From the IMG/VR virus record IMGVR_UViG_3300028228_000217: a stretch of DNA of 64,000 nt; one strand, given 5' to 3'. Numbering within the stretch: position 1 is the stretch's first letter; each line of letters opens with the position of its first letter. The DNA comes from an uncultured virus (IMG/VR IMGVR_UViG_3300028228_000217). Taxonomy: Duplodnaviria > Heunggongvirae > Uroviricota > Caudoviricetes. The position numbers were made by a program, and so were the translations under genes. Shown in pieces: positions 1,246 through 62,098 of the stretch. The notes beneath the pieces were generated by a model, which was not told where the DNA came from, searched no databases, and worked only from the letters and a program-made list of their open reading frames with translations.

Positions 1246-1966
1246 CTATCCGAAAAAATCGGAAAGACCTGATAATGTAATTTTACTTGTTACCTTTGTT
1301 TTCGGGTTTACAACATCAATTTCATGCATTAACTTAGGCATTGTTTCATAAAATTTTTGTATCTTCTTAAATGATTTACTATCTAAACTCTCAATGAATT
1401 TATTTAACTCATCACTTGTGTAATCTTTAGCCATGTGTACAGTTTCACCTTCAAAGATTTGATAAATGCCATCTGATATAACTTTAAATAAAGTAGATGT
1501 ATCAGCACCTTTACTATAATCCTTTGTAGGGTCAACAGAATTGATTGTAGGATATTTCATCAATACACCAATTTTCTTATCTTCATTGACCATAATTTTG
1601 TTTTGATGTTCGTCATCTACTTGAACTTCAACAGTTGACAAGTCTACCTCAACATCTACATAAGTTTTTTTGTCATCTGGACATAAAACTTTCAGTTTTT
1701 GCAATTTCACCAACTGATTTAGACCTAATCTGTAAAAATACATATTCTAAATCAAATGTAGGTAATTCATTAACACTCAATTGACCAAATGTACATAAAC
1801 TTACAATCTCTTTGAGTGCTTGTACAATCTCTTTTTGTTTTTGTGACTCTAGAGCCTGTAATAAAATCTTTTCTTCTTTTACAAGAAATGGTCTAAATTT
1901 TACTGTTACATCACTTGAAGGTAATGTCAACTCATATGTCGCTGTTTCTAATATAGGCAATGCCAT
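1246..1966 (-). CDS. gp26: Baseplate hub subunit gp26 (split by frameshift near 1700)
   Basis: MALP..YELTLPS..KFRPFLVKEEKILL, DLEYVFLQIRSKSVGE and C-terminal FYETMPKL..LSGLSDFF across ORFs 1673..1966 and 1246..1743. Confidence 0.9.
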
Positions 1967-24817: not shown

Positions 24818-25483
24818 CTATAGGTTTATCTTCATTGTGTTAGCATATAAATTAAACCATTCATTTGAATATTCACTTTCGTTATAATCCATAAAATAAG
24901 GACCACCTAATGTCCAATGTACATTCTTTGCGTTTGGATTATAGTCGTATTCACCAACTAACCAGTTCCATTCTAAATCTAATGAACCAATAGCGTCTTC
25001 ATTTGGCAACCATTTAAATTGATGTAGTTCTAAACCTGAAGCTGAGTTTACATACTCAGGTGTTAATCTACTACATAGACTATTATTCATAATCATCATA
25101 CTAGACCAGTTTTTCTTTTCAAACTTTTCGTTTTTTGCACCTCTAAACTTATCTTGTTTAGGTTCATAATCATGTTTACAACACATAACAGAATAGATGT
25201 AGTTTCTTTTTTCCCACAACTCTGCAATATCTCCTCTAAACATCATATCACAGTCCATAAAAATAGAAAAACCTTCATACTTTCTTAAACTTGGTACCAT
25301 AAATCTACTAAATGCAAAATCTGTAGATTGGTTTTCTTGTTTCTCTCTTGTAAATTCTGGTATATTACTCAAACACAATGGTGTGATTGAAACTGGTTGA
25401 CTAGAGTTTCTTCTTATACTCTCAGCCAATATATGAAAGGCAACCTTTTCGCCCTCATCATAACCTATAAAAACATCTATCAT
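24818..25483 (-). CDS. Glycosyltransferase (GT8-like)
   Basis: VFIGYD, STDFAFSRF, FMDCDM, KNWSS, EWNWLVGEY, HWTLGGP. Confidence 0.85.
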   Translation of the reverse strand: MIDVFIGYDEGEKVAFHILAESIRRNSSQPVSITPLCLSNIPEFTREKQENQSTDFAFSRFMVPSLRKYEGFSIFMDCDMMFRGDIAELWEKRNYIYSVMCCKHDYEPKQDKFRGAKNEKFEKKNWSSMMIMNNSLCSRLTPEYVNSASGLELHQFKWLPNEDAIGSLDLEWNWLVGEYDYNPNAKNVHWTLGGPYFMDYNESEYSNEWFNLYANTMKINL

Positions 25484-26172
25484 ACTCTTGCCTCCGGACT
25501 ACGCCCTTTTAATTTTCTGTTACCTTTTGTATGGTCATAAACAGGACCTAATATTGACCTTGCTTGAACATGACCTGGTTTACCGTCACCAATGTTGTGA
25601 TTTCTCGTACCTCTGTTCTCAAATTCTTTTCTTACATAATCCCATACAAAACTATCATGTTGTTCTTTAAGGTCATATATGCCGTCTGTATCATACAATG
25701 ATTTCATTCTGTGTGCATACGATTGAATAACTGGATGTTTTAAATTAAAGTATAAGAAACCACATTCACTATAATGGTCACCTCTGCCTAGGTATGTCAT
25801 CATACAATCATCTCTATGTATATGTTTCTTAATCCAATCTTCATCAATTGGTTTATGAAATACACTATCAGCGTCAATACAAATTATACCATCAACATCT
25901 TCGTTTATAATGGCATGACAATATGCATATACTTTGTAACTAAAACGGACACCATCTGTAAGAAACTCTTTACCTTTTACTCTGTAGTCTGAGTATGGTT
26001 GTCTATCTTTGTTTCGTTCTACAAACTCTTTTAATTCTGGTAAGACTTTCATCATACATTCATCTTCATTGTAGATTTTCAAAGGAAATGGCCAGTTATA
26101 GGTCTCTTTAAACCTATAAGCATATTCTTTATATAATTTATTATTGTAAGTTGTAATAGTTTTAATGTTCAT
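25480..26172 (-). CDS. Glycosyltransferase-like protein
   Basis: RFSYKV, CIDAD (DxD), SECGF, HDSFVWD, DHTKG. Confidence 0.7.
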   Translation of the reverse strand: MNIKTITTYNNKLYKEYAYRFKETYNWPFPLKIYNEDECMMKVLPELKEFVERNKDRQPYSDYRVKGKEFLTDGVRFSYKVYAYCHAIINEDVDGIICIDADSVFHKPIDEDWIKKHIHRDDCMMTYLGRGDHYSECGFLYFNLKHPVIQSYAHRMKSLYDTDGIYDLKEQHDSFVWDYVRKEFENRGTRNHNIGDGKPGHVQARSILGPVYDHTKGNRKLKGRSPEARV

Positions 26173-26872
26173 CTTTACTCGCAAAATATGTTCTAGTTGG
26201 TAACTTCTTATCGACAAAAATTGCCTCTGAATTAATCACATTTTCAATCTTATAATTTCTATCTTCTAACCATGCTTTGATTTCTCTAAAGTTTGTACCA
26301 TATCTTAGATAGTGTTTGTCTTTAGTTTCTAGTATAATGATAGGTTTACATGCCTTAATTGTGTGTTCACCACCTTTTAAAACTTCTAACTCAAAACCCT
26401 CTACATCTATTTTAATAAAATCAACTCTTGAATAACCAAACATGTCAAGTGTTTTTATCTGCACCTCTTCGGTACCATTTTTTAAATCTACAAAAGGATT
26501 ACCTGAGTTATCATCATTTGTGTTTAGTTTTATAGTACCACTCTTTGAACCTAAAGCACAAGTATGAAGTCTATAATTAGTAATACCTCTATCGGCCATA
26601 TTATTAATTAAACATTCTTTATTTTCTCTGACAGGTTCAAAAATGATAAGTTCTTTAAAATGATTTGCCATATCAACAGACCATAAACCAATATGACCAC
26701 CAATATCAATAGCTACTTTACTTCTACTTGCATATTTTAAAGAAAATGATAATGCATAATCTCTTTGTTGTGTTTGATAATCATAACCTCTATTAATAAC
26801 AGATTGTTCTTCTAACTTCTCTGATATATGTTTATCACTATCAGGTAACCACCAATCAAAGACTTTTTTCAT
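26162..26872 (-). CDS. FkbM-family methyltransferase
   Basis: IDIGGHIG, FEP, DFIKIDVEGFE. Confidence 0.9.
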   Translation of the reverse strand: MKKVFDWWLPDSDKHISEKLEEQSVINRGYDYQTQQRDYALSFSLKYASRSKVAIDIGGHIGLWSVDMANHFKELIIFEPVRENKECLINNMADRGITNYRLHTCALGSKSGTIKLNTNDDNSGNPFVDLKNGTEEVQIKTLDMFGYSRVDFIKIDVEGFELEVLKGGEHTIKACKPIIILETKDKHYLRYGTNFREIKAWLEDRNYKIENVINSEAIFVDKKLPTRTYFASKDEH

Positions 26873-27558
26873 TAATTTGCTCTTATAATAACTGCTTCAG
26901 ATAAACACTTGTTTCTTGGTCTATTTAAATAAATCTCATAAGGACCATTTTTAAACTCTTTTAACAAGTCTTCATATTGTTTCAAACTTTCTTCGTTGTC
27001 AATTAACTTAACTTCGAACTCAATTAGAAATGCTTTGAATTGTACATCTTGGTCAATAATCTCTCTACAGAAATCCCACCATACACCCTCAATATCTGCT
27101 TTGATAATATCAGGTTGTGGCATATCATCAGCCATAATCGTTTGTAGATTTTTTGTTTCTACTGTGATATGTGCTGGGTTTTCACCAAACTGTGGTAGTG
27201 GTATAAGTGAATAACATTTTGATAAGTCACTTCTATCATAATAAAAGTTCATACTGCCATTCTCACCAGCATATGCTAGTTGATGAAATGTCATCTTGTC
27301 TTTACCAGGAAAGTTTGTTTCAAATAGTTTCACACTATCTGGTGTAGGGTCATATAAATGTATATTCATATCAGGATTGTCTTTTAACATGGCCTGTTCC
27401 CAACCCACATCTCTATGTACACCTAATGATAATACATTTGTACTATCTTTGACCACACTTTCTGGCAGCCAGTAGTTTTTATATTGTTTAAAAGATTGAG
27501 GTTGCATATATTCACCTTCTAATCGTTTAATCTCACTTAATAGTTCTTGTTCCGTCAT
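26872..27558 (-). CDS. FkbM-like methyltransferase
   Basis: LSLGV, YDPTP, DIIKADIEG. Confidence 0.8.
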   Translation of the reverse strand: MTEQELLSEIKRLEGEYMQPQSFKQYKNYWLPESVVKDSTNVLSLGVHRDVGWEQAMLKDNPDMNIHLYDPTPDSVKLFETNFPGKDKMTFHQLAYAGENGSMNFYYDRSDLSKCYSLIPLPQFGENPAHITVETKNLQTIMADDMPQPDIIKADIEGVWWDFCREIIDQDVQFKAFLIEFEVKLIDNEESLKQYEDLLKEFKNGPYEIYLNRPRNKCLSEAVIIRAN

Positions 27559-28106
27559 ATTTTCCTCACTAATATTAAATCGTTTTTATATTCTGCTTTA
27601 ATTTCATAACCCATTTCTTTTAATAAATCAATGGCGCCAGTTTCTTTTCCCCATTTTTCATCACTACCATTGTCTTCAATGATAATAATAGGTGAATATT
27701 TATTGATAGTATTTTCACCACCTTTTAAAACTCTAAATTCATGGCCTTCTACATCAATCTTAATTAGGTCGACCATTTTAAAATTAAAACTATCTAAGGT
27801 CTTTTGTTGTACTATTTTTTCTTTTGCTTCTTTTCTAGGTTTATCTGTAATGACACCTGAATATGCCTTTACTTGTTTTTCTTCATCACCTAATGCAATT
27901 TCTCTATGTGTCACATTACGCATTGTATCAAAACCTGGTCTTTTTCTATAATCAAATGCTTCAACTTTAGTAAAATCCTCTGACATAGGTCTACTAAAAT
28001 CGCCATCTCTACAACCAATATCAATAGCAGTTCTAAATTCTTTTAAATAAGGTTTTGCAGCCAAATATGTCATTAAGCAAACATATTCATTTGATTTAAT
28101 TTTCAT
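27555..28106 (-). CDS. FkbM-family methyltransferase
   Basis: IDIGCRDG, DLIKIDVEGHE. Confidence 0.88.
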   Translation of the reverse strand: MKIKSNEYVCLMTYLAAKPYLKEFRTAIDIGCRDGDFSRPMSEDFTKVEAFDYRKRPGFDTMRNVTHREIALGDEEKQVKAYSGVITDKPRKEAKEKIVQQKTLDSFNFKMVDLIKIDVEGHEFRVLKGGENTINKYSPIIIIEDNGSDEKWGKETGAIDLLKEMGYEIKAEYKNDLILVRKI

Positions 28107-28732
28107 ATTGCAATTCTTCAAAATCATGTTTAAAATATTTATATACTACATTTTTCTGTTCTTGTGTGTAAGGTTTACTTTTATAAGTAGATTTTTTAAT
28201 ATGTTTTTTACTTATATCATAACCTTTGTTTTGTAAATAGGACCATACTGTATCATCTTCTATCTTAAATGTATTTACAGGTTTATTTGTTTGTCCTTTA
28301 TACCAAAATATTTTGATTTGAAAATGCATCCGGCACTTGAAAAGTGTTTATCCATCTATGTCTATCAAAATCATTTGTCAATAACTCAACCCAACCATCA
28401 AACTTTATTTTTTCTAAATTTTCAACTCTTTTAATTAATAGAGTTCTATCTCCACCTTTTAATGGTAAATCACCAAGCAATCTTTTCTTGTCCCATTCAA
28501 TTTGAAAATGATAAAAACTATAAAATCTATCATAAGGATTTCTGACTGTTACAAAATATTCATCACCAGTAATTCCTATTGAATTTAATCGTTTAATTGA
28601 TGAGTGAACACCGTTATGTGTTACCTCATTATCAATAAAATTTGAATTTTTAAGAGCCTCAGTAATACTAGAACCACCACATTTTGGAGGGTGTATAAAA
28701 ATTATATTGTGATTTTTTAATTTAAAGCTCAT
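28096..28732 (-). CDS. Sulfotransferase family 2 protein (frameshift near 28310)
   Basis: FIHPPKCGGSSI and VRNPYDRFYSFY PAPS motifs; second piece ends VYKYFKHDFEELQY. Confidence 0.8.
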
Positions 28733-45834: not shown

Positions 45835-46329
45835 CTATACTAATTTAGCAAAGACTTTAGACGAACCGTTTTCTAGTGTTTCAAAACTAACTTCTAGTTT
45901 TAAACCACCTTCTTTTTTATGAGATATACCATCATCATTAATATCGGAACCGTCCACATCTTTACCAAATCTTCCTCCGAACTGACTTACTTCACCCATA
46001 ACCGAACCTTTAGTACCTTCCATTGCTGGCAGTTTTACTTCTAGTCCAATTGTTTTCAGTTTGTTTGTAAGTTGTTCAACTGCAGCTGTAGGATTTAAAT
46101 ATTCCTGCATTGCAATAGAGCCAACAAACGCATTTACCATTTCTAATACCTTAGGGTCATGTATATTGTGAGCACCAATGTTACCATCTTCTACAGAGTT
46201 AACTTCAGGTGTACCAACAGACATGTCTTCGTTAACATGTTGTTTAAAAGTTTTCATCTCTTCTCCTGTTAAGTCTTCTTCGAAATCCTCCAAAGACTTT
46301 TCTTTAATATGTTGTTTTAAAGTTTTCAT
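45835..46329 (-). CDS. Hypothetical protein with duplicated MKT(L/F)KQH leader
   Basis: MKTLKQHIKE..MKTFKQHVNE. Confidence 0.65.
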   Translation of the reverse strand: MKTLKQHIKEKSLEDFEEDLTGEEMKTFKQHVNEDMSVGTPEVNSVEDGNIGAHNIHDPKVLEMVNAFVGSIAMQEYLNPTAAVEQLTNKLKTIGLEVKLPAMEGTKGSVMGEVSQFGGRFGKDVDGSDINDDGISHKKEGGLKLEVSFETLENGSSKVFAKLV

Positions 46330-47472: not shown

Positions 47473-47958
47473 CTAGAAGCCTAGTTTTTTCAACTCGGCG
47501 ATAGTTTGAGAGGCTGTTTTGAATGTGATACCTGTACCACCTGCTCTATTAAATTCAGCAGTATTCTTTTCATAATCATCAATCAGTATAGAACCAGGCG
47601 TTGCATAGTTCTTTTTCTGACTTCTCATTACAAGATTGATTTTGTTACTAGGTATTCCAGTATTTTTCATAGCCCATTTCTTCTTGCCTGGAATGCAATT
47701 AGGGTCAAATGCATGTTCTACATATGCACTTAGAATATGTGGTTGATATTTCTTAACGAAAGAAAATAGTTTCTTTCCTTCATTCAACCATGGTCCATCA
47801 GACCAAAACTTTTTGTTTGCAATGATTGGATCCCATCTCTCTTTTCTTCCTAGTTTAGTCCATTGATTAATTGTAAGACCTGTGGTCTGTTCAATGTTCT
47901 TCACAAAGTCAAAGAGTACGCCATCCATATCGAGGTATATTCTTGGTAAATTTTTCAT
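47473..47958 (-). CDS. HAD-family 5'(3')-deoxyribonucleotidase-like phosphatase
   Basis: IYLDMDGVLFDF, K..W, ILIDD; preceded by sigma70-like TTGCCT..TATAAT. Confidence 0.85.
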   Translation of the reverse strand: MKNLPRIYLDMDGVLFDFVKNIEQTTGLTINQWTKLGRKERWDPIIANKKFWSDGPWLNEGKKLFSFVKKYQPHILSAYVEHAFDPNCIPGKKKWAMKNTGIPSNKINLVMRSQKKNYATPGSILIDDYEKNTAEFNRAGGTGITFKTASQTIAELKKLGF

Positions 47959-48758: not shown

Positions 48759-50813
48759 TTAGTTTCCTTTTACCTTAGCAGCTAAGTCTTTATCTGCACC
48801 GCCCCATGTTCCAGAGGATTTTGTTATGAATGAATTTACTCTAGCGAAAGCCCATTGTTGCTGTGTAGTACCTGGTCGGTGTCCACCTCTCCATGCAGCC
48901 ATGCCTCTATCGTAAACTTGTTTTAGAATACCATATGGCATTCCAGATTTTTCAGCTTTGTTTTTTAGACCTTCAATTTGTTCAAATATCTTTTTAGCTG
49001 GGTGGTCTTCGTTCTTCATTACCTTTTCTAAATCTTTTGCTTGACCAGCATGTGCCTGACTAGCACCTTTTAATTTAGTGACAATCTTTTTAACAGTAGG
49101 TGTATCTTTACTATCTAAGTCTTCGTTAGTTCTTTTAAGAACATTCTGAACATCTGGATGTAATGATAAACCTTTTGCAATCTTTTCAATTGCTGCTACA
49201 GCACCTGAATAATTACCACCTTTGTATCGTTTATCGTTTGCAACACCATATGCCATTTTAATTTGTTGTGATGTAAACTTTGAAGTGTCTTCTTTAACTT
49301 CTTCTTTTTCTTTTGCCACCTTATCTCTAAGATGTTTGTATGCAATACCAACTTGTAGTAATGGTTCACCTGTTTCAGGATTTACCATTTTCTTGGTATC
49401 TTTTGCTACAGCTTTTGTTTTATCTGTTTCTGATTTTTGTTTTAACTGTGCAATCTCAGCGTCTTTCTTTTGTAAGTCACCTTTTAATTTGTCAGAGTCA
49501 TCTGTCTTTTCTTCTTTAGGTTCCTTTTTAGGCTCTTCTTCTTTAGCTTCTGAGATTTCTTCTTTTACACAATTAGGTACTTGTTTACCACCCTTGTCTT
49601 TCATACCAACTTGTTTGTAACCTACCCAACAAGCTTCTGTAATAGGGTTGTAGTTGTCCTCGTCAGCGCTTTCATCTATTGTATAATTCTCTGCTCTTAC
49701 TGTTGCACCATAAAAGTTTTTAAGGTCAGTAGCATACTTATTAAGGTCTGCACCGTTACCATCTATCTTTAAAGCCTTTTGATTACCAGTAATAGTAAAA
49801 CCTTGTTTTGCTAAATCGGTTGAAGCCTTTGACATATCAGCATGTGAATTAAAAGATACTGTCATCTTTTTGAATTCATGTATCTGTTCTTCACCAAGAA
49901 TACTCTTAACGGTGTTAACATCTAGTTTCATTAACTTAGCAATCTCAGCTGCTGTCTTACCATCTTTTTGCATTTGGTCTATGTCAGACATTCTGCCTTC
50001 AGCAAGTTGTTCTTTAACTGCAACTACTGTAGCTGCCATATCGCCTTGAGCAAATGATACGGAACCATCTTTTCTTTTGTATAGATAGAAAGGACTTGTT
50101 CCTGGTTTATTTTCAATTTCTAATTTGACTTTATCTGTATTATACTTTGCACTTCTAGTCTTGTTCTTAACTACAAATTTCTTAACAGTAGTACCAGACA
50201 TCATTGAATTATAAGTGATAGTCATTGTATCGCCTTTTTTCAAACTATCAAATTTCTTTCCGTCTATTTTACCCTCTGTAATTTCTATTTCATTCTGTGT
50301 AGCTTCGTCTAGTATTTCTACTTCTTCTAATCTTAATTTTACACCAGCTGGTCTAGGTATATTCTTTTGAATCATTTTGGTCATTGCCATAACTGATAAG
50401 AAAGGAATATCTGCCTTGAAAATATCTACAAGACCACTATCTGGAATATTTTTAAACATTTGTGATAGTTTGTTAGCATTTGCAATTGAAATCTTTTTAC
50501 CTCTCATCACTTCGTATTCTTTTTTAAGTCTGTCGATTTGAGAAGCGCTAAAGTTTTCTTCTAATGTTTCAATTAAATCTGAAATAACATTAATTTTTGC
50601 ATGTTTAACTGCTACTTGTGTAGGAACATCTAACTTAGCAATCATAGATTTAATACCTGGTGTTATATCTTTTTTGCTTTTAGTTGCCCACACCCTTTTT
50701 AAATTTGATAATTGTGTGTCTGTTAAGGTTCCACTTAACCCAAAGTCGTTAGCTTCTGCATTTAATTTGACCTGCTCATAAGCTTCGGCCATTGTTTGTC
50801 TATAGTTTGTCAT
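48759..50813 (-). CDS. Large modular protein with C-terminal DUF5824-like domain; candidate head internal polyprotein
   Basis: Modules separated by Glu-ending linkers; EACWVGYKQVG..VPNCV; LKQVYDRG.AAW..HRPG..QQWAFARVNSF. Confidence 0.7.
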   Translation of the reverse strand: MTNYRQTMAEAYEQVKLNAEANDFGLSGTLTDTQLSNLKRVWATKSKKDITPGIKSMIAKLDVPTQVAVKHAKINVISDLIETLEENFSASQIDRLKKEYEVMRGKKISIANANKLSQMFKNIPDSGLVDIFKADIPFLSVMAMTKMIQKNIPRPAGVKLRLEEVEILDEATQNEIEITEGKIDGKKFDSLKKGDTMTITYNSMMSGTTVKKFVVKNKTRSAKYNTDKVKLEIENKPGTSPFYLYKRKDGSVSFAQGDMAATVVAVKEQLAEGRMSDIDQMQKDGKTAAEIAKLMKLDVNTVKSILGEEQIHEFKKMTVSFNSHADMSKASTDLAKQGFTITGNQKALKIDGNGADLNKYATDLKNFYGATVRAENYTIDESADEDNYNPITEACWVGYKQVGMKDKGGKQVPNCVKEEISEAKEEEPKKEPKEEKTDDSDKLKGDLQKKDAEIAQLKQKSETDKTKAVAKDTKKMVNPETGEPLLQVGIAYKHLRDKVAKEKEEVKEDTSKFTSQQIKMAYGVANDKRYKGGNYSGAVAAIEKIAKGLSLHPDVQNVLKRTNEDLDSKDTPTVKKIVTKLKGASQAHAGQAKDLEKVMKNEDHPAKKIFEQIEGLKNKAEKSGMPYGILKQVYDRGMAAWRGGHRPGTTQQQWAFARVNSFITKSSGTWGGADKDLAAKVKGN

Positions 50814-51160
50814 TAGTTGTTTACCTTTGCTCCCGTTCTCCATTGATAACAGCTCCAATATCTGGCCATTGTTTTAGGTCCTGGATTATCACATTTATGC
50901 CTCGCTCTAAAAGATTTTCTTCGAGCTGGGTCATCTCTCTTAATACTTAATCCAGTTGTATCACCAAATGAAACTTTAATAACTTTACCAGCTTCATTCT
51001 TTACATATACATAAAACTTTTTACTACCGCCTCGTATAGGGTCGTTTAATTTTACTTTTTTACCTTGATATTCTGACTCATAAATGCCTTCAGCTTCATG
51101 CTCGAAGATACATTCTTCGCAAGATTCATCAATGTTTTCGTACTCTTTAAAAGATTTCAT
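50813..51160 (-). CDS. DUF6321-like basic protein
   Basis: KKFYVYVKN..KVSFGD..RRKSFRARH.C..ARYWSC; starts MKSFKEY. Confidence 0.7.
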   Translation of the reverse strand: MKSFKEYENIDESCEECIFEHEAEGIYESEYQGKKVKLNDPIRGGSKKFYVYVKNEAGKVIKVSFGDTTGLSIKRDDPARRKSFRARHKCDNPGPKTMARYWSCYQWRTGAKVNN

Positions 51161-53637
51161 TATAGTTTCTCTATCATTTTGGCAACCACTTCTTGTAGTT
51201 TTGCCTTCCATTCTTCTTTATATCTTTCTCTATATTTATTCATTGTAGACTCTGTAGATGCCCATTCTTTAATATCTTTTTCGGATGGTGTTTCTTTCTC
51301 TCTATCTAAGAAACCTTTTACTTTTTAATAGGGTTTACCTGGCCTGGTGTCATGTCTACCGTGTGTTTTGTGTACTCTGGTGTACCTATTTCATGTACTT
51401 CGCCATACATTTGTTTGTATTTCTTAGTATGAATACTTGTTTTAGTCTTGGCATCCTTGTCACCTGGAGCTGCTTTGTTATCATTCTTTGTAGTATCTTT
51501 GTTCTTAAAATGGTCAGCTCTTTTATTTTTTACATCTTTTGATAACTGTTTGTAATACTTTTTAGGTTGTGTACCATCTTTTTTCTTCACATCTTTATCT
51601 TGTGGCTGTGCGTCTAAGTCTTCTTTTATCTCAGATACAGCTTCAAATCCATAATCAACATTTAAGTTATGTTCTCTCATCTCAGCCTCTCTATTTGTAG
51701 TTGATACAGGAATACAATCCCATATCCATGCTTTATGCAAATTATTTTTAGTATCTTCTACAACAATAAAATTAGTACCTTTTCTTACAACTTTACCTTG
51801 TAGGTCTTCTTTGATGTAATCTACTGTGTCACCAATATTAAAAATTTGGTCTCTGATATAGAGGTCTCTAATCTGTTGTTGTTCAAATTGTTCTAAACTA
51901 ACAACTGGATTTAAATTTCTCATGTACATATAACTAGCAGCTAAGTTCATACCTTTTCTAACTTGTTTCATAATACCGTCTGCGTCAACACCTCTTGGTA
52001 AACCTTTTTCAAAATTTTTTATATCACCTTTGGCAGCTGCAGCTCTCATCTTACTTGCACTCATACCTGAGGCTCCCTCTGCGTCAGGATCCCTTTCGCC
52101 AGCAGACACCACTTTAATATTATCAAAGTTATACATACCATGTCTTGATGATACACCATTATACTTTGTCAATATATTTTCAAATTCTCTAACTCTATCC
52201 GAACCAGCAACCATAGTTACATCTGAGTAACCTTTCTTGTATAACATTGTAGCAATATCAAGTACCATATTGGTCTGGTTGATTTCAATGTTTCTTGCAT
52301 GAGAAGGAAACATCTTCTTCATAATAGATAACTTATCTTTAGGAGATAATGGATTACTTTTAGGGTCTTCACTTCTACTTAAAAAGATTTTGTAATCATT
52401 TGTGGGTAATGATTTAACTTTGTTAATAAGTTTTTCGTGGCCAATTGTAGGTGGATTAAATCTACCAAATGCAAATGCAATAGATTTATCTGTAGCTTCT
52501 TCTATGTATTCTTCGTGTACCATTTTTACTAATTTTTTAGCATCAATATCAATAAATGTATCACTAACAGCAGCAGCGTAATAACCTATGTCGTGTCTTA
52601 ATGGTAGTCCTTCAGACGCTCTTTCTTTTTCTTTCTATCAATAACATCTTGTAAAACTTTAGCTGCATATTCATATCTCTTTTGAGTTGTTGCCATCATT
52701 TTAATTTTAGTAACTAAACTTTTAAACCAATCGCTTTTTTTATTTTTATCTTGTCTAATGTAATTGCCTCTTTTAAACTATCAATCTCTGCGTCTGTTAC
52801 TTCACCATCATCTAAAATCTTTTTACATTTCTTGTAGAATTTTAGATAGTGATATTTTTCTAACATCTTATAAATTACATTTTTAGGTAATCTGTTTTTA
52901 ATTCCATATTTTCTTATCTCGTCTGGTGACATATCTGTATCAAATGCAGCTCGTCTTTCTGCGTCAACACCATCACCAATTTTGATAATGTCTTCGATAC
53001 TATCTTCAATCTCTTCTAACTTATTATTAATTAATTCTTGTAAGTTTAAAATGTCGTCTGGTTGTAATTCTTTTAGTTCATCATAGTCAATGATATCTCT
53101 TTTTAGTTCGCCCTTGACAACATCTATTTCTTGTACTTTTCTTTCAAAGTCTTTTATATATATTGATTTGTCAAAGGTAAAATCGTCTGGTCTTTTAATA
53201 AACTTATTGTTTTCGATATCAAATACTGCGTCTGCCTTTTTCTCTTGGTCATTATAAGTTTTAATGTCTGTAATAAAATAAAAATTAATAGGGTGTTGTG
53301 TACCAGGTATATTCTTACCTTGAATACTATCAGGAGAAGTGGTCGACAAATACTTTTTACTAAGTCTAGTTCTTTCTTCTTCTCTCTTATCTTGTGGTAC
53401 TTTAAACAATACATTTAAATCTAAATCTGCGTCAGCTCTATATCTTTTTGTAAGAATAGAACCAATAAGACCAACCTTAACAACAGGATATTCTTCTTCA
53501 AACATATCTATTTGTTTATCAATTAATGCTTTAACACTAGGTTTGATTTTAGGGTTGTTAGTATCAGCGTCATCAAACACAGCCTTAGCATATGTTTTTC
53601 TAGGTATATCTATGATACTTTCTTTAAATGTTTTCAT
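51160..53637 (-). CDS. Probable fused pol-beta nucleotidyltransferase + HIGH-type (cytidyltransferase-like) protein, split by three frameshifts
   Basis: GSILTKRYRADADLDL in 52714..53670; FGRFNPPTIGH, VAGSDR, MSASKMR in 51318..52523; linker readable across two A-run shifts; tail continues to 51160. Confidence 0.7.
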
Positions 53638-54326
53638 CTTCTTTTTAATTTTCTCTCTGTCGCCATCCACCTTTTTGCTGTGTATGACTTAATCGTATTA
53701 CTCAATAATCTTCTTACACTCTTACCAACTTTATTCATAACAACTGTTGTAAGTTCTTTATCATCTTTACTGTTGTCAATGATTACCATACTAGACATAC
53801 CAAATAGATTTTGAAATTTACCTATATTACTTTGTACAGCTTTCCAAGAATTTACAGTAACATATTCTGGTACACTTCTTTCTCTTTTTGAATTTCTTTC
53901 TAATGCAACATCTAAACTTGTGTTAACAAATACCATATAACAATCATAACCTAATTGTCTTAACTCACTCACTTGTTGATTAATCTTATCGTAATCTCTA
54001 CCTGTGCCATCAATAACCAAACCTAATCTACCTTTGATATATAAGTCCATTTGATTACCAGTCATAGCCTTTGCTCTATCTCTAATAATATCTCTAGCTT
54101 CTGCCTCATCTTCAGGCATTTTTAGTGATAGACTATTTTTCTTTAATGCTTTTTCAAATGCATTATCTGAGTTGACAGTTTTTAAACCTGTGCCACCAAA
54201 TGCATTACGAGTTACAAATGTTTTACCTGAGCCTGGTCCACCTGCAAGGAAAAATGCCTTGAAGATGTTAGGGTCATATAACCCCTCTTGTAAGTCTTGA
54301 AATCTTATGTCGTCAAATTTTTTCAT
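53634..54326 (-). CDS. P-loop kinase (zeta-toxin/PNK-like)
   Basis: LAGGPGSGKT, VNSD, VIDGTG, ALERN..RER. Confidence 0.8.
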   Translation of the reverse strand: MKKFDDIRFQDLQEGLYDPNIFKAFFLAGGPGSGKTFVTRNAFGGTGLKTVNSDNAFEKALKKNSLSLKMPEDEAEARDIIRDRAKAMTGNQMDLYIKGRLGLVIDGTGRDYDKINQQVSELRQLGYDCYMVFVNTSLDVALERNSKRERSVPEYVTVNSWKAVQSNIGKFQNLFGMSSMVIIDNSKDDKELTTVVMNKVGKSVRRLLSNTIKSYTAKRWMATERKLKRR

Positions 54327-54898
54327 TGTACTTTCTTAATTATTTCTTTTGATATTGCTTCAGGTGTACTACCCTCTGCTTTAATATTTATGACTTCATC
54401 ACCGTAATAGTCTAATAGAGGTCTTGTTTCTTTTTCATATGTTGCCAATCTCTTTTTAATAATCTCTGGTGTGTCATCTTCTCTACCTCTGGCAGTTAAT
54501 CTCTTAATAATTTCTTCTTCGGACACCACAAGGTTTACAACATAATCATATTCAATACCTTGTTCTTCTATCGCCTCAGCTTGTTCAACACTTCTAGGAA
54601 AACCATCAAAGATATAACCTTTTTGTGCGTCTGGTTTTTCTAATCTTTGTTTTACAATCTTAATTGTTAAGGGTGTTGGTGCAAACTTACCTTGGTCTAA
54701 TAATTTTTTAACAGTTCTACCATCTTCGGTGTTTTGTTTTGAGATTGCTCTTAACATTTCACCTGTGTAGATATGTGGAATACCTAACTCTTTAGTAATA
54801 ATTTCTGAGTATGTTGACTTACCTGAACCAGGTCCACCTATCATAATGATTTTAGGTTTATTGATTGCTTCAAAGAAGTATTGTTTAAATGACTTCAT
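54323..54898 (-). CDS. adk: Adenylate kinase (short LID)
   Basis: GGPGSGKST, HIYTGEMLR, DGFPR, RGREDD. Confidence 0.9.
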   Translation of the reverse strand: MKSFKQYFFEAINKPKIIMIGGPGSGKSTYSEIITKELGIPHIYTGEMLRAISKQNTEDGRTVKKLLDQGKFAPTPLTIKIVKQRLEKPDAQKGYIFDGFPRSVEQAEAIEEQGIEYDYVVNLVVSEEEIIKRLTARGREDDTPEIIKKRLATYEKETRPLLDYYGDEVINIKAEGSTPEAISKEIIKKVQ

Positions 54899-55056
54899 TT
54901 TTTATAACCTGTACCTTTTTCTCTACTGCCCCATCTTTTTTGCCAAGCATAATTTGTAAACTTTACACCTAAACTTTCTATAATACTATAATAAAAATCT
55001 AGTATTCTTATAAGTTTCTCTTTAATTAAATCAATTGTATCTGGTAATGTTCTCAT
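54895..55056 (-). CDS. Small hypothetical protein (not in ORF track)
   Basis: MRTLPDTIDLIKEKLIR..YAWQKRWG, 53 aa filling the gap with overlapping start/stop. Confidence 0.5.
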   Translation of the reverse strand: MRTLPDTIDLIKEKLIRILDFYYSIIESLGVKFTNYAWQKRWGSREKGTGYKK

Positions 55057-56261
55057 TAATTCCAACCTTTCGGCATTGTAAAATTTTGCCTACTAAATTC
55101 TAATCTGTCAACCAGTTTAATTGCACCTGCAACCTTATCAACTGCAACATAACCCTCTGGTGCTGTCACTCTGTAACCTGTTGATGTTCTAAGAAAGTTA
55201 CCAATACTTTGTACTTGGCTCATTTTTTGTAGTAAGGTTTGTTTAGCTAGACCTATTGTAATGTGTGAGGCAATTGCAAAGTATAGTGCTTGTTTATTTC
55301 TATCTATAAACCTTAGACCATCTTTCTTTGCCTTAATAAATTTATCTTTACCTTTTGGTGTTTTTCTACTATCAATCTCATTCTGTAATATACTTTCAAA
55401 GTAATCTCTGAATTGTTTTTGCATAACTGAAACTTTATCCATACTACTATTTGAATTTCTAATGTAATGATTGAAGTATGTTTTTAATCTGTAACCAACA
55501 GATAGGTCATCTGATATATTTTTACTCATCAAGTTTAAAATAGGAGCAGCCTTTCTAAGAGAACCTTCGGCCATTCTTATCTGTGCGTCAAATTTAGATA
55601 ACTCAGATTTATCAAACATAACTTTTGTTTCTTTATAACCTGCACTTGCTAAGAATACATTTCTATTAGATGAACCTTGAACTGTACCAAAACTAGCAGA
55701 TAAACTATCCATCTTTTTACCATTGTATTGAGTGTGAAATACAATACCCATTTTGGCTTTTGAAATTTTGTTGGCAAGGTCACTACCCTTAGGTACTGCA
55801 TATGTAATAGTGTTTGGTGTAAATGATACCATTTTCTCACCATCTATAGTTATATCTTTCAAGTCATTTGTAAATAACAAATCGCCTTGTAGAATACCTT
55901 TGATGTTAAGTCTGGATAATTGTGATAAACATACAGTTAGTTTCTGTGCTACAACACCGCCGTGGTTATTGTTTATATCTCTAACTGTGTAATTGATTTT
56001 TGGAGTTACATTGAATACAGATTTTGTACCAACGAAGAATTTACCATTTTCTGGATTAATACCACAGATAATAGCTGGTGCTCCGTCCCATTTGACGGTA
56101 ATATTGGCTGTGTCACCTGTACCTGCCAACATATTTCTAACTGACTTTAGAAAGTTGACTGCATTGTCACCACCTATCATACCTCTATTGATGATATCAT
56201 CTTCAAGATGTTCTAAGTGTGTGTTCTTGTCCTGTGTAAGGAAACCTTTAAAATTAAACAT
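55056..56261 (-). CDS. DUF6267-like protein with ATP-dependent ligase-type motifs
   Basis: HLEHLED, TVKWDG (motif I KxDG), QGDL, EGYV, IKLVDR.EFS..NF. Confidence 0.75.
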   Translation of the reverse strand: MFNFKGFLTQDKNTHLEHLEDDIINRGMIGGDNAVNFLKSVRNMLAGTGDTANITVKWDGAPAIICGINPENGKFFVGTKSVFNVTPKINYTVRDINNNHGGVVAQKLTVCLSQLSRLNIKGILQGDLLFTNDLKDITIDGEKMVSFTPNTITYAVPKGSDLANKISKAKMGIVFHTQYNGKKMDSLSASFGTVQGSSNRNVFLASAGYKETKVMFDKSELSKFDAQIRMAEGSLRKAAPILNLMSKNISDDLSVGYRLKTYFNHYIRNSNSSMDKVSVMQKQFRDYFESILQNEIDSRKTPKGKDKFIKAKKDGLRFIDRNKQALYFAIASHITIGLAKQTLLQKMSQVQSIGNFLRTSTGYRVTAPEGYVAVDKVAGAIKLVDRLEFSRQNFTMPKGWN

Positions 56262-56345: not shown

Positions 56346-56353
56346 TATTTATA
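56346..56353 (-). promoter_or_regulatory. T4 late promoter TATAAATA heading the 56-48 kb cluster
   Basis: Exact motif about 85 nt upstream of the 56261 ATG; a sigma70-like TTGCCA..TATAAT lies at about 56283-56311. Confidence 0.7.
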
Positions 56354-57746
56354 ATACTTTATCTCTAGTATATTTTAATAAAGAAGCCGTTATCAGGATT
56401 GATTTTCTTAGCACCGTTTATCATCTTATTCATAATACCAGATAAGTCTTTTTATTTTTTATAAAAAAATGCATTATTTTTAAACCTTGAATCTTCATAA
56501 CCATATTTTCAGCAATATCCATATTAGATTTTGCAATATTAATTGTTTTAACAAACTCTTTATAACTTATTTTTTTTCATTAAAAACTTTTGTGTCTTTA
56601 ATAACAGTTTCATACATCTTATAAGTTTCTTTAAGTTTAGTTTCATCAAAATCTGAAAATGGTTTAGGTGTACCAAAATATTTTATACTATTAATTCTAG
56701 CATCCTTGTATTGACTCATAACACTATCAACCACTTTTGTAGGAATTTTTCCTAAACGACCTCCAGTTGGTGTACCATCAGATGTAATTTCGGTTTGTGC
56801 AGTACCATAACCGTGAGGAAATCCTCTAACTTGTAAATTAATTGTTTTTTGTATCTTTATTTGTAAAGGTAAATAAACCTATTTCTTTACCTTCGATAGT
56901 TAAGTTACAATTAAATTTTGATATTTCAATATCGTAATCTGACACTTTAGTTTGACCTGGTACATTTGTATAATCTACATTTGCTTTTTCTGCAATTATC
57001 TGTTTAAGAGAAATTGGATAAAGAATTTTATTTTCATAAAGATTATACAATTTATTGTTAAACATATTAATTAATCCATCTGAAATGTCATAAGTTTCTA
57101 CTATTTTTTTCAGAGCTTTGATTACTTTTTCTCTTTCATTTTTCTTAATAATATAAACATCTGCTGGATTCCAGGAATCTGATTTTCCTAATTTTGATTT
57201 CTTTAAAAATTCTGTAATAGTTTTTCCAAAACTTGATTTATCGGTAGCGTCATGTATAATATCATAACTAGTTAAAGAACCTACAATTTTTTTAACTGCT
57301 GGACCTGTGAGTTGAAATGTGTTATACCAATCAGCAAAAGCCTCCGGGTCCCTTACGAATATAGATTGTTTAGTATCTTCAGCAGTTGCAATTTTTTTTC
57401 GCAAAGACATTACAGTAGCTAACTCACCTGCGTCTGATAGTGCTTTACCTAAAGCATTTCTTGATTTGCCACCCATACCTGAGAATGGTGCTTTATCAAT
57501 ATCTGTAAATGTAAAATATTTTTTACCGTCCTGAAATATATAATCCCATTTATTATTAGGATAAAGTATCTTACTATATTTTGGAAAGTCTGTTTGTACT
57601 TTTTCTAAACTATCAATATTTTTAGTTCTTTTAAACAAGTAAGACTTACCATCTTTTACCTTAATCTTCGTGCCTTTTTTAATTTTAGCTACGATAGATA
57701 CAATGTATTTTGATTTAGATAAATCTGCTTTGCTGAATAATGCCAT
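56349..57746 (-). CDS. Putative PD-(D/E)XK-type endonuclease-like protein (frameshifted near 56845 and downstream)
   Basis: GE..WNPADVY..PISLKQ; late promoter TATAAATA at 57764..57771. Confidence 0.55.
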
Positions 57747-58052: not shown

Positions 58053-59420
58053 CTATAATTTAAAATCGCTAAACTTATTGTAAGCGTCCTCTTTTGGTTC
58101 TACTTGATTGGCGTCAACTATATTTTGACTTGATTGTTGTACATCATATAATCTCATCTTAGACCTATCAACACCAATAATAAATGCTCTGTTTACGCTT
58201 GGGTCATTATATCTATTCTTCAATTGTTTTACTTTCATCTGACCTAGTTTTTCTAATTCTTCATTTGACATTAAGGCAAACATGAAGTCAGCAGTAGCAG
58301 GTAGACCAAAAGATTCAGAAGTATCTTCAAGACCAAGGTCTGTACTTACGAAACCAGTTCTAGTTGTTTGTGTCGCACTAAAGATAGGCACATTTGCCTC
58401 TACAGCTAGACCCCTTAACTCTTCAGCAATTGCTTTGATGTAGAAGTAAGATGATATATTACCACCTTTAAATCTAGCACTAGCACAAATATTTAGATAA
58501 TCAATAAAGATAACATCTGGTTTAAAACTTTTCTTTAATGCAAGTTCATTAATCAAAGACTTGAAGTGACCACTATGAGCAGACGCTGTTGGATATTCTT
58601 TGATGATAAGTCTACCTTGTGTTTTCTCTCTGAGTTTTTTAATCTTGCCATCATATAATGATTGAGGCATATCATGTAAATCTTCCATAGTGACATCTAG
58701 TAAGTTTGCGTCAATTCTTTCTGCAATTCTTTCCTCTGCCATCTCTAAAGTGATATACAATACATTAAGACCTTGCAACAAATAACTAGCCGCTACATGA
58801 CACATGAACAATGATTTACCAACGCCAGTACCAGCAAGAGCAATGTTTAATGTCTTACTTGGAACACCACCTTTGGTAATTCTATTCATATAATCTAAAT
58901 CAAATTGATACTTCTTCTCTTTAGTATGATAAAATTTAAATCTACTATCTGCGTCTTCAATGTAATCGTGACCAACTGACTTGTCAAATGATACAGCCAA
59001 TGCCTCTGATAGAATATGTGGTATTGCCTCTGGTGTTTGTGTCTTATCTTTATTATCTAAGATTTTAATACCAGCTAATACAGCATTGTGTACAGCACGG
59101 TCTTTACAAAACTTTTCTGTTGTATTTAATAACCATTGGTCATCTGATTCAGTATTCTCAACACCAACAACATAGTCTTTTATGTGTTGTAATTCTTCTT
59201 CATTAATATCTCTTCGACTATTCAGTTCAATTAGAATAGCGTCTTTTGTAGGAAGATTATTATACTTCTCAATGAAACCAAAGACTTCACCAAACAATAA
59301 TTGTTCAACACGATTACTAAAGTATTCTTCTTTAATAAAAGGTAAAACCTTTCTAGTGTACCCTTCGTTAAAGAAGAGGCTAGAGATTATTGTATTCTCA
59401 ATCCGTGATTGCTGTACCAT
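58053..59420 (-). CDS. gp41: Replicative helicase gp41
   Basis: LAGTGVGKS, ITLEMAEE, IDYLNI, SATQTTR, SESFGLPATAD, KQLKNRY. Confidence 0.97.
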   Translation of the reverse strand: MVQQSRIENTIISSLFFNEGYTRKVLPFIKEEYFSNRVEQLLFGEVFGFIEKYNNLPTKDAILIELNSRRDINEEELQHIKDYVVGVENTESDDQWLLNTTEKFCKDRAVHNAVLAGIKILDNKDKTQTPEAIPHILSEALAVSFDKSVGHDYIEDADSRFKFYHTKEKKYQFDLDYMNRITKGGVPSKTLNIALAGTGVGKSLFMCHVAASYLLQGLNVLYITLEMAEERIAERIDANLLDVTMEDLHDMPQSLYDGKIKKLREKTQGRLIIKEYPTASAHSGHFKSLINELALKKSFKPDVIFIDYLNICASARFKGGNISSYFYIKAIAEELRGLAVEANVPIFSATQTTRTGFVSTDLGLEDTSESFGLPATADFMFALMSNEELEKLGQMKVKQLKNRYNDPSVNRAFIIGVDRSKMRLYDVQQSSQNIVDANQVEPKEDAYNKFSDFKL

Positions 59421-60758: not shown

Positions 60759-60995
60759 CTATTTTAATATCTCAACTTCACTATTCGTTTCAATGACAAC
60801 TCTTGCACCACAAGGTAGAATAGGTTTCTCACTACCACCATATCTAACTACACTATCACCTAAGATTTTAACTTCGTGACAATATCTATTAGTTTTACCT
60901 TGTTTAACTGTAATAACAGGTTCATTGGTACCGTGTTTTTTGTTAGCTCTAATGACATGTTGATTGACATGTATGTAAGTTTTCGCTTTCTTCAT
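60759..60995 (-). CDS. Hypothetical protein
   Basis: IHVNQH.I..N..PVITVK..CGARV.IET. Confidence 0.65.
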   Translation of the reverse strand: MKKAKTYIHVNQHVIRANKKHGTNEPVITVKQGKTNRYCHEVKILGDSVVRYGGSEKPILPCGARVVIETNSEVEILK

Positions 60996-62098
60996 CTTAT
61001 AATATCTATCTTACTATCTTTAGTCCAGACCTCTAGGTCATTTCTAAGACGACCATCCTTATTTAGATTGTCAAATCTTTTTATGGCCATTTTTCTCCAC
61101 CATTCTATGATTTCTTTTTCATTATATCTGTCATAGTTTGGTGCCTTAACTATATCTTGTGTCTTACCATTTACAATGTCTATAAAGTTTTCTATACCAT
61201 AGTTACTTGCATAATATCTTTTTTGTTCGGTAAGATTTTTAGCATTTGCAATCGTAAGTTTAAATTTTTCTAAGTCATCACCTTCAAGTGTTTTCTTACA
61301 TAGACCAATAATGCCGGTGGTCATTTTAAGTTTACGACTTGAAGCATCCGCTTTTACTAACTGACCTTTACCAATAATATTTTCAACATAGTCTACCATA
61401 TCTAAGTATGGTTTACCATGCAACATAGGAATAAAATCTGACATTGTATTGCCTTTGTATCTTAAAAATGGTTTCATACCATCATACATTGAGGCACCTT
61501 TTGTTTTCCCATATAAAGATGTGGTTTCAAACAACACCAAGTTCATGTCATACTTCTTGTTTAACATCTCTCTAACTTGATGTGAACAACATAGACCAGC
61601 CAATAATTTACCACCAAGATAATTAAAACCAAATGGCTGGCATGGTACAATTACAAAACCCATAATAGCAGTCTTGTTAAATACTTTTAAATCAGGTACA
61701 TTACCTAACATATCGTTTCTAGGTTTACAGTTAATAACTGGCGAACCAAATCTCATAAAACCTACAAACTTACCTGTGTTCATTTCTTTTACTGCAAGCT
61801 TTAAAGTCTTACCAGGAATACTTGTCATATTACTATGACTTGATATCATATTAATACAGGTGTCCCATGTGTGATTATCTAGTTCTACAACTTGTAAATC
61901 CATGTCCTTTGGTGACATAGTAAAATCGCAAAACATATCACTATCAAACCCCATACCAGGAAGACTTGATGGTAATGATTCAATCTGAGCCATCTTTTGG
62001 TCACGCATGTATTGGTCTATTCTTTCAAACTGACCAAAGTAGTCATTGAATATACCAGCACAATGTAGTGCCTGTTCTCTATCTAGGGTTTTCGCCAT
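60992..62098 (-). CDS. Conserved hypothetical protein, DUF4338-like
   Basis: VGFMRFGSP, PFGFNYLGGKLLA, FETTSLYG..SMY. Confidence 0.6.
   Translation of the reverse strand: MAKTLDREQALHCAGIFNDYFGQFERIDQYMRDQKMAQIESLPSSLPGMGFDSDMFCDFTMSPKDMDLQVVELDNHTWDTCINMISSHSNMTSIPGKTLKLAVKEMNTGKFVGFMRFGSPVINCKPRNDMLGNVPDLKVFNKTAIMGFVIVPCQPFGFNYLGGKLLAGLCCSHQVREMLNKKYDMNLVLFETTSLYGKTKGASMYDGMKPFLRYKGNTMSDFIPMLHGKPYLDMVDYVENIIGKGQLVKADASSRKLKMTTGIIGLCKKTLEGDDLEKFKLTIANAKNLTEQKRYYASNYGIENFIDIVNGKTQDIVKAPNYDRYNEKEIIEWWRKMAIKRFDNLNKDGRLRNDLEVWTKDSKIDIIR

Follow-up and report, generated by a model that had tools for sequence, protein, structure and literature searches.

A ligase-fold DUF6267 protein and its HIGH-motif nucleotidyltransferase partner in a candidate heal-and-seal cassette of a marine T4-like phage

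The 64,000-nt IMG/VR record IMGVR_UViG_3300028228_000217 (this whole stretch of DNA is our window) comes from a marine, T4-like, pelagimyophage-like phage. It holds a gene cassette built around a 401-residue protein of family DUF6267 (55056..56261, minus strand), which carries the motifs and, in a structure model, the fold of ligase-type covalent nucleotidyltransferases, and whose usual partner in related loci is a HIGH-motif nucleotidyltransferase (NTase). We read the cassette as a core nucleic-acid heal-and-seal pair with a nucleotide-activating partner, whose tagged members would be delivered in the capsid and whose substrate may be either DNA or RNA; whether this reading is right we regard as an even call. 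A sequence-only reading of 51160..56261 had proposed a candidate RNA-repair or nucleotide anti-defence module, an interpretation that our analysis partly supports.

DUF6267 carries ligase motifs and models as a ligase fold

Four motifs of the covalent nucleotidyltransferase superfamily had been reported in this gene by the sequence-only reading, and they stand there in the order given: K57-W-D59-G60 (motif I), Q125-G126-D127-L (III), E369-G370-Y-V (IV) and I-K382-L-V (V). We aligned 93 representatives of different 50%-identity clusters, each 34–46% identical to the window protein. K57, D59, G60, D127, E369, G370 and K382 are invariant across all 93 sequences, as are H18, Y154, H176 and T177, and in motif IIIa F147 and Y154 are invariant or nearly so. 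The window protein matches the DUF6267 profile PF19782 at 394.4 bits (cut-off 27), with residues 13-398 on profile positions 1-376. The family comprises 2,670 clusters at E ≤ 1e-3 and has matches in 467 of 50,697 deposited phage records, nearly all of them cyano-, pelagi- or methylophage myoviruses. Literature searches, with subscription journals and bioRxiv supplements outside their coverage, returned no paper on DUF6267, and none on the family stood among the 12 listed for RNA ligase, cyanophage, nucleotidyltransferase and polynucleotide kinase.

The AlphaFold2 model of the protein has a predicted local distance difference test value of 92.5 and a predicted template-modelling score of 0.89. 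In the model a helical bundle of ~135 residues (about 218-350) is inserted between motifs IIIa and IV, and the protein ends 19 residues past K382, in a single helix. Since so little follows motif V, there is no oligonucleotide-binding (OB) domain, which sets DUF6267 apart from classical DNA ligases and capping enzymes. When the model was aligned exhaustively with 48,161 PDB representatives, the top eight rows were all RNA ligases: NgrRnl (5cot; score 8.0, root-mean-square deviation 3.9 Å, 182 aligned), REL1 (7.7), Trl1 (two entries, 7.2 and 7.0), T4 Rnl1 (6.8), T4 Rnl2 (two entries, 6.7) and an archaeal Rnl (6.6). A second structural look gave RNA or DNA ligases in rows 1-46. The model comparison and the catalytic motifs thus bear out the ligase fold that the sequence-only reading had proposed. 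With a KxDG motif I, motifs III, IIIa, IV and V in order and a nucleotidyltransferase-domain fold in the model, we file DUF6267 as a putative ligase-fold covalent nucleotidyltransferase of a new architecture, outside Rnl1, Rnl2, Rnl5 and the DNA ligases.

The closest comparison is with NgrRnl (Rnl5; 5cot/5cou), REL1 (1xdn) and T4 Rnl2 (1s68/2hvq), nick-sealing ATP-dependent RNA ligases that also lack a C-terminal OB domain. These are duplex enzymes and not tRNA-loop ligases. DUF6267 shares with them the KxDG lysine motif, the motif IV EG and the motif V lysine in the same order. It differs in having no sequence-level match to them, in the helical bundle between IIIa and IV, in a conserved N-terminal H-L-E-H-x-E-D segment of its own, in the Asp that replaces the usual Glu of motif III and the single Lys of motif V, and in its habitual fusion or adjacency to a HIGH NTase.

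We also looked for other ligases. The families PF01068, PF01653 and PF09414 were found in none of five related genomes (Pelagibacter phage HTVC008M, P-HM1, two IMG/VR genomes rated 100% complete and one rated 75%). This negative rests on the related genomes and not on the window's own, because the nearest record to the latter is a 13.5-kb fragment (G001). According to the accessible part of a review, homologues of g30 and rnh are missing in cyanomyoviruses (PMC2984593).

The HIGH-motif enzyme is the usual partner of DUF6267

All genes of the region lie on the minus strand. The features are as follows.

58053-59420, minus strand: gp41 helicase, which lies with uvsX upstream of the cassette, followed by two small or unknown genes and then DUF6267
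56346..56353, minus strand: TATAAATA octamer resembling a T4 late promoter, 85 nt upstream of the DUF6267 start codon; a consensus match only
55056..56261, minus strand: DUF6267 protein, 401 residues, predicted ligase-fold covalent nucleotidyltransferase, OB-less, with helical insertion
54895..55065, minus strand: small open reading frame (ORF) of 56 residues with TTG start, bridging DUF6267 and Adk; coding status doubtful
54323..54898, minus strand: adenylate kinase (Adk), 191 residues (PF00406, TIGR01351)
53634..54326, minus strand: P-loop kinase of AAA_33/zeta/T4-Pnk type, 230 residues; kinase domain only, without phosphatase
51318..53637, minus strand: bifunctional Pol-beta NTase/HIGH NTase gene, 773 residues when read through (from domain order and contigs of other runs)
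52714-53670, minus strand: ORF holding the Pol-beta part of that gene in the window; likely start ATG at 53637
51318-52523, minus strand: ORF holding the HIGH-motif 'cytidylyltransferase-like' part (PF01467)
52622..52741, minus strand: two one-base gap sites, near 52625 and near 52734-52737, in A/T homopolymer runs
50813..51211, minus strand: small conserved protein (phrog_7595, g132), 115 residues from a tag-like start at 51160; follows the HIGH enzyme in relatives
48759..50858, minus strand: 699-residue Lys/Glu-rich protein ending in DUF5824 (family match)

The left end that the sequence-only reading gave for the block, 51160, belongs to the start codon of g132; the HIGH enzyme stops at 51318. 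The identities which that reading gave for the downstream genes (Adk, zeta/PNK-like kinase, Pol-beta, HIGH) held, except that Pol-beta and HIGH are one gene and not two. Four-nucleotide ATGA overlaps join Adk to the kinase and the kinase to the NTase, so these three are probably translated as a unit. A frame resembling the 56-residue ORF occurs in one of 80 IMG/VR loci (L004, E 2e-15).

We counted neighbours in the 61 of these 80 loci that hold at least 1.5 kb downstream of DUF6267. The HIGH enzyme followed on the same strand in 54 and was not found in seven; in the 54 it lay within 300 nt (24 loci), within 4 kb (28) or farther away (2). The DUF5824 protein occurred in 34 loci, the kinase and the Pol-beta domain in 22 each, g132 in 18 and Adk in 10. 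The core is therefore DUF6267 plus the HIGH enzyme, and the co-conservation expected by the sequence-only reading applies to this pair and not to Adk, kinase or Pol-beta. The kinase and Pol-beta are additions of particular lineages, tied into the set by fusions of their own; its least constant member is Adk.

Gene fusions give the same picture of the pair. The profile phrog_455 is a fused DUF6267 and HIGH protein, and among 30 DUF6267 representatives of at least 480 residues nine carry a HIGH domain (three before DUF6267, six after), one of the nine with RimK ATP-grasp and Zn-protease domains as well. The same 30 include one fusion with the kinase (P0207) and one with the small g132 domain (P0201). 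The kinase is fused to the NTase in P0387 and in loci L019 and L069, and g132 shares one frame with NTase-HIGH in L016 and L035.

Among cultured phages HTVC008M comes nearest (DUF6267 51% identity); its gene order is gp41, gp126, DUF6267, gp128, kinase, a cytidyltransferase fused to DUF5824, and a small protein; DUF5824 there closes the 596-residue 'cytidyltransferase' gp130. P-HM1 and HTVC008M have the same DUF6267/HIGH gene pair and order. The pair corresponds to the cyanophage T4-GC190 'cytidylyltransferase' and T4-GC71 (DUF6267), with the same order, the HIGH motifs kept and homologues reported from virions. Unlike there, the window's HIGH enzyme bears an N-terminal Pol-beta NTase, and the pair is split by Adk and the Pnk-like kinase. 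The accessible part of PMC3037559 counts the HIGH enzyme (T4-GC190) among the cyanophage core proteins. Together with the 467 phage records that hold DUF6267, this status fits a basic role in the life cycle better than the accessory anti-defence role proposed by the sequence-only reading.

The Pol-beta and HIGH domains belong to one gene

In metagenomes, relatives of the Pol-beta protein occur as fusions with the HIGH enzyme. P0271, which is 98% and 95% identical to the window over two aligned parts, runs straight from Pol-beta into the HIGH domain. P0305, which has a longer linker, aligns to the window in three successive frames (residues 20-315 to 53622-52741, 320-355 to 52729-52622 and 352-538 to 52634-52068), and both frame changes fall in A-rich runs. 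We then aligned contigs (not raw reads) of four public runs with 52300-53100. The dominant contigs had zero or one other-letter difference from the window, yet one extra base at each gap site. Behind 52625 the contigs with the extra base made up 115.8 of 115.8 in run X3, 134.9 of 134.9 in X9 and 6.9 of 31.4 in X1; behind 52734-52737 the figures were 115.8 of 115.8 in X3, 182 of 182 in X9 and 12.7 of 16 in X1. Run X19 had no coverage of 52597-52758. Once an N is placed at each gap site, an uninterrupted 773-residue frame leads from the ATG at 53637 to the stop at 51318. Pol-beta and HIGH also share one open frame in 21 of 22 related loci, the 22nd running off its contig. Because the long linker has no counterpart in the 80 IMG/VR loci, the frame argument rests on P0305, P0271 and the contigs. 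The two domains thus belong to one gene, broken in the window by two one-base gaps, and given the single frame in contigs and relatives the split is most likely an assembly error or a rare variant.

Phage DNA that is almost identical turns up in many samples: 18 public runs (X1-X18, from 17 studies) hold 92–93% of the sampled words of 52300-53100. Some minor contigs skip the linker (joints 52480-52499 to 52764-52780); we read them as linker-less variants like P0271. Elsewhere in the window, at 1246-1966 (minus strand), the match to a T4 baseplate protein (PF12322) is divided between two ORFs that overlap, with 1673-1966 covering profile positions 2-82 and 1246-1743 positions 83-218. This looks like a one-base frame break and points to the same homopolymer-error reading. 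At 56565-56837 (minus strand), past the stop of a 302-residue gene (56838-57746), another frame stays open for ~90 codons to a poly-A run; that gene may be broken in the same way as the NTase-HIGH gene, its L004 homologue being too distant to tell. For annotation, the lesson is that homopolymer indel errors in the window split real genes.

The 773-residue protein consists of a minimal Pol-beta NTase (53637-52717), a variable linker, the HIGH NTase (from ~52470), a small C-terminal domain and a basic tail. The Pol-beta domain scores 24.8 against PF01909 (cut-off 21) and has the hG[GS]...DxD signature and fold of its superfamily, with invariant GS and DxDxD residues. It has no match in the 50,697 deposited phage records, and its ESM Atlas matches are viral NTP_transf_2 clusters only. 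PF10127 (RlaP) is not among its Pfam matches at E ≤ 0.01 and occurs in none of the five related genomes, including G002 with a homologous fused NTase. An identification as RlaP was accordingly ruled out, and a family X DNA polymerase (mini-PolX) did not come out as the best fit. The arrangement is like that of RlaP cassettes in that a Pol-beta superfamily NTase is encoded beside a ligase-fold enzyme; it differs in the family of the NTase and in its fusion to a HIGH enzyme.

The HIGH domain scores 22.3 against PF01467 (cut-off 21) and keeps T-I-G-H and S-A-S-K-M-R motifs. In 43 sequences G28-H29 is invariant and S155, S157, K158 and R160 are conserved, which we take to be the (H/T)xGH and ISSTxxR-type motifs. 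The best PDB matches of its profile are weak: phosphopantetheine adenylyltransferase (PPAT; E 0.024), the nicotinamide mononucleotide adenylyltransferase (NMNAT) domains of NadR (0.029 and 0.049) and the archaeal NMNAT MJ0541 (0.08). Against the NCBIfam model nadR_NMN_Atrans the E-value is 0.0015, and the scores against TIGR01526 (17.8, cut-off 341) and TIGR00482 (16.1, cut-off 112) are far lower than required. A specific assignment as NMN adenylyltransferase (NadR/NadM/NadD) was rejected, as the equivalog models were missed and PPAT scores as well as NMNAT. Since PPAT, NadR and archaeal NMNAT score equally weakly, no small-molecule substrate can be named. In the HIGH enzyme, residues 213-281 show a weak match (E 1.8e-4) to a phage 'ribonucleotide reductase alpha' PHROG, and a Lys-rich tail comes after them; this tail and the Lys/Glu-rich 699-residue protein would suit DNA-associated internal head proteins.

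Adenylate kinase and a Pnk-type kinase

Adk matches PF00406 with E 1.8e-45 (155 bits, cut-off 26.8) and TIGR01351 at 168.8 (cut-off 168), with several equivalog models below their cut-offs. By these family scores it is predicted to be a true, standard adenylate kinase.

The 230-residue kinase matches the Pfam families AAA_33 (3.3e-13) and Zeta_toxin (1.9e-11), and BLASTP aligns it with residues 3-165 of T4 PseT (E 0.002, 22% identity over 176 columns). The two proteins have in common a GxGKS/T P-loop, an aligned Asp and RNSKR, the latter two presumably the catalytic Asp and the RxxxR lid of Pnkp. We did not find the haloacid dehalogenase (HAD)-type 3'-phosphatase half of Pnkp in this protein: its Pfam matches are kinase families only, and the alignment stops at PseT 165. 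The PseT alignment supports the Pnk-type kinase of the sequence-only reading, here a predicted 5'-kinase without the phosphatase half.

In T4, tRNA is repaired by the pair of Pnkp (pseT) and Rnl1 (rnlA/gp63). The window cassette likewise has a ligase-fold enzyme and a P-loop 5'-kinase-type enzyme, the former resembling Rnl1 in the motif IV-V stretch and the latter aligning with PseT, and the fusion of kinase and DUF6267 in P0207 recalls the LIG-KIN arrangement of fungal Trl1. Unlike T4 Pnkp and Trl1, the window kinase has no HAD phosphatase half and no cyclic phosphodiesterase is present. Unlike T4 Rnl1, the window DUF6267 misses PF09511, and the kinase is absent from 39 of 61 related loci.

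Tag-like N-termini suggest loading into the head

We compared N-termini with those of the T4 internal head proteins, a line of evidence that the sequence-only reading had not foreseen. In the T4 record IPI starts MKTFKEF, and IPII and IPIII start MKTYQEF. The capsid-targeting sequence is the first 10 residues of IPIII, and the protease gp21 cleaves after L/I-x-E (accessible part of PMC9026906). The window NTase starts MKTFKES and Adk MKSFKQY, and the kinase, g132 and the ORFs at 46257 and 44647 start alike. The gene strand has no other start of this kind, and all six fall between 44647 and 54898. In Adk and the kinase the tag residues form extensions ahead of the P-loops (~14 residues in Adk). 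The kinase extension ends in L-Q-E, which fits the prohead-protease rule; that of Adk has F-F-E, and the NTase has no Glu there. A looser tag pattern fitted 71 of 196 module N-termini in related loci versus 38 of 497 other ORFs, and the strict pattern fitted few relatives. In cyanophages the HIGH neighbours of DUF6267 are tagged, and a gp21-type prohead protease is encoded in five of five related genomes.

The first 6-10 residues thus follow a pattern nearly identical to that of T4 IPI-IPIII. The candidate cargo differs from the T4 internal proteins in consisting of enzymes of 190-770 residues and not of small basic proteins, and in showing a clear L/I-x-E site in some window proteins only. 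Given these N-termini, this phage probably packs at least NTase-HIGH, the kinases and the small downstream proteins into its head and injects them together with its DNA. A cytidylyltransferase/NMNAT-like protein has repeatedly been found in cyanophage virion proteomes, and the authors note that carry-over of an abundant protein is possible (accessible parts of PMC3037559, PMC10665884 and PMC9602691).

Downstream of the cassette, a 164-residue ORF (45835-46329, minus strand) has two tag-like starts 24 codons apart (46329 and 46257), and a 61-residue ORF at 44647 has a start of the same kind. Neither has a family match; by their starts, both may be further capsid-targeted small proteins.

Proposed mechanism and alternative explanations

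We infer catalysis, the order of its steps, packaging in this phage and the choice between DNA and RNA, and we propose the following scheme. DUF6267 would be a divergent ATP-type polynucleotide ligase in which K57 takes AMP, a 5'-phosphate end is adenylylated and the nick is sealed, with the helical insertion in place of an OB domain. The Pnk-like kinase would turn 5'-OH breaks into 5'-phosphate ends, and the 773-residue protein would have one or both of two tasks: its Pol-beta half may add nucleotides to 3' ends, and its HIGH half may produce or restore a small molecule or cofactor in adenylylated form, of NAD or dephospho-CoA type. Adk, an accessory of this lineage, would return the AMP released by ligation to the ADP/ATP pool. 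The substrate could be nicks in the replicating or incoming genome, which would make DUF6267 the missing ligase, or it could be RNA. The cassette is probably expressed late.

Several results weigh against this scheme. Foldseek gave no match to the DUF6267 model at E ≤ 0.001, a single-sequence search of the PDB gave none, and a profile search of PDB sequences returned no ligase, just low-complexity noise such as eS8. Sequence links that speak for a ligase are faint: PF09511 (the Rnl1 family) is touched weakly by 3 of the 93 relatives (best E 6.2e-4) and by the window protein not at all in the Pfam scan, and hhalign pairs E369-G370...K382 with T4 Rnl1 residues 222-242 (the EGYVAV...K stretch, motif IV-V only), with a probability of just 1.4%, and of 1.0% for T4 DNA ligase. 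In motif III an Asp stands in place of the Glu usual in ligases, and motif V has a single Lys. No 3'-phosphatase, 2H esterase or cyclic phosphodiesterase was found in the block or elsewhere in the window, and Tpt1 was found in none of the five related genomes. The likeness of the Pol-beta half to RNA-tailing enzymes is no greater than that to minimal or antibiotic NTases and CD-NTases. The substrates known for the HIGH family are small molecules and not polynucleotides, so that its member here has no evident task beside a ligase. As for delivery and expression, the looser tag pattern has a background of 7.6% (13 of the 38 background matches being the UvsX N-terminus), DUF6267 of the window clade begins like a tag but lacks the cleavage-motif Glu, cyanophage DUF6267 starts directly at its conserved segment without a tag, and TATAAATA is not enriched in the window (10 matches, all on the gene strand, versus 12.6 expected by chance).

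The same gene set could instead repair host tRNAs cut by anticodon nucleases, as in T4: the kinase would heal the 5'-OH, the Pol-beta NTase would restore lost 3' nucleotides and DUF6267 would seal single-stranded RNA. This agrees with the structural neighbours of DUF6267, RNA ligases including T4 Rnl1 and Trl1, and with the Pnk-like kinase. Against it, the closest folds (NgrRnl, REL1, Rnl2) belong to nick-sealing duplex enzymes, 39 of 61 loci lack the kinase and the NTase whereas the DUF6267-HIGH pair is nearly universal in the 61, and no enzyme for healing a 3'-phosphate or 2',3'-cyclic phosphate was found in block or window. A ligase, a PNK and a Pol-beta NTase are described as an RNA-repair set in phages (accessible part of PMC7824862), and RlaP adds one or two nucleoside monophosphates to damaged RNA 3' ends (accessible part of PMC12776372). 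Of the RNA-repair module in the sequence-only reading this gene pattern stands, whereas the NTase is not of PF10127 and 3' healing lacks its enzyme. With T4-GC190 called a cyanophage core protein (accessible part of PMC3037559), the conservation of the DUF6267-HIGH pair is too wide for accessory counter-defence, and we consider tRNA repair decidedly unlikely.

NadR combines a nicotinamide riboside (NR) kinase with an NMN adenylyltransferase, and the kinase and HIGH enzyme could act in that manner to rebuild NAD+ or another adenylylated cofactor early, with Adk balancing adenylates and DUF6267 as a consumer of the cofactor or as an adenylyltransferase acting on a non-polynucleotide. The conserved T-I-G-H and S-A-S-K-M-R motifs and the weak PPAT, NadR and MJ0541 matches (with the nadR_NMN_Atrans match) are in keeping with this, as are a described phage NAD+ salvage by an NTase and a P-loop NR kinase (accessible part of PMC7824862) and the naming of the virion protein as an NMNAT homologue by its authors (accessible parts of PMC10665884 and PMC9602691). 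Those matches lie far under the family cut-offs, however, the kinase aligns with T4 Pnk and zeta toxin and not with NR kinases, and no Nampt, NAPRTase or Nudix partner was found among the 77 window ORFs scanned. Cofactor supply also leaves a conserved ligase fold with full ligase motifs, fused to HIGH, unaccounted for; it is a possible explanation, though an unlikely one.

Two further explanations concern DUF6267 itself. The T4 record labels rnlA 'RNA ligase and tail fiber protein attachment catalyst', and DUF6267 might likewise serve mainly in virion assembly, as gp63 (Rnl1) does in tail-fibre attachment, its tagged neighbours being internal head proteins without a joint chemistry. Its motif IV-V likeness to Rnl1 and the tag-like N-termini of its neighbours would suit such a role. 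The strict invariance of catalytic-type residues in 93 diverse sequences and the recurrent fusions to enzymes argue for enzymatic selection, and we consider a morphogenetic role very improbable. Nor do we give much credence to a chance resemblance in which DUF6267 is not a nucleotidyltransferase at all: the lack of significant Foldseek, profile and sequence matches to ligases would agree with it, but four motifs are invariant in the right order and spacing in the 93 sequences and the top 46 matches of the second structural look are all ligases, so that we hold it to be hardly plausible.

Other features of the window

Downstream of the cassette, 47473-47958 (minus strand) encodes a 5'-3' deoxyribonucleotidase-like protein (phrog_2643), as does HTVC008M gp134, with no Pfam match at E ≤ 1e-4. 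We take its family to be of the HAD phosphatase type, in which case it would be the sole phosphatase-type gene nearby. Between UvsX and a DNA methyltransferase-like gene lies a 368-residue protein (60992-62098, minus strand; phrog_19197) with a weak match to Druantia DruA (PF14236, E 4e-7, 29.9 bits versus a cut-off of 27). Three FkbM-type methyltransferase-like genes, a sulfotransferase-like gene and a weak glycosyltransferase-8 match at 24818-28732 (minus strand) form a possible glycan or small-molecule modification cluster.

Implications

T4-like cyanophages and pelagiphages are among the most abundant viruses of the sea and, to our knowledge, have been described for ~20 years as lacking a DNA ligase. 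In the fullest version of our heal-and-seal reading, DUF6267 and HIGH would be the long-missing nick-sealing ligase system of the ocean's dominant T4-like phages, the cyano-, pelagi- and methylophage myoviruses. The NMNAT/PPAT-like partner would make or regenerate the adenylyl donor for an OB-less Rnl-type sealer or, alternatively, would directly form or resolve the A(5')pp(5')N end. In the pelagiphage-like lineage a 5'-kinase, an NTase for tailing ends and Adk would complete the kit, and T4-type tags would bring it into the capsid for injection, so that breaks in the incoming (for example sunlight-damaged) genome or in early RNA could be mended before phage gene expression. We put this full claim forward tentatively and think it rather unlikely.

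The HIGH partner is already known and has been discussed as a virion NMNAT-like protein. What is new from the window is that the block contains a Pnk-like kinase and Adk, that Pol-beta and HIGH form one fusion protein whose split is directly traced to two missing bases, and that the tags have been quantified. If DUF6267 is a ligase-fold enzyme wired to an adenylyltransferase, a near-universal unknown gene beside the replication genes would fill the ligase gap, with a new ligase architecture that has no OB domain, a helical insertion and an obligatory HIGH partner. If capsid delivery holds, this would be a virus that injects a ready-made nucleic-acid repair or nucleotide-activation kit, which would also explain the repeated and puzzling detection of a 'cytidylyltransferase' in cyanophage virions.

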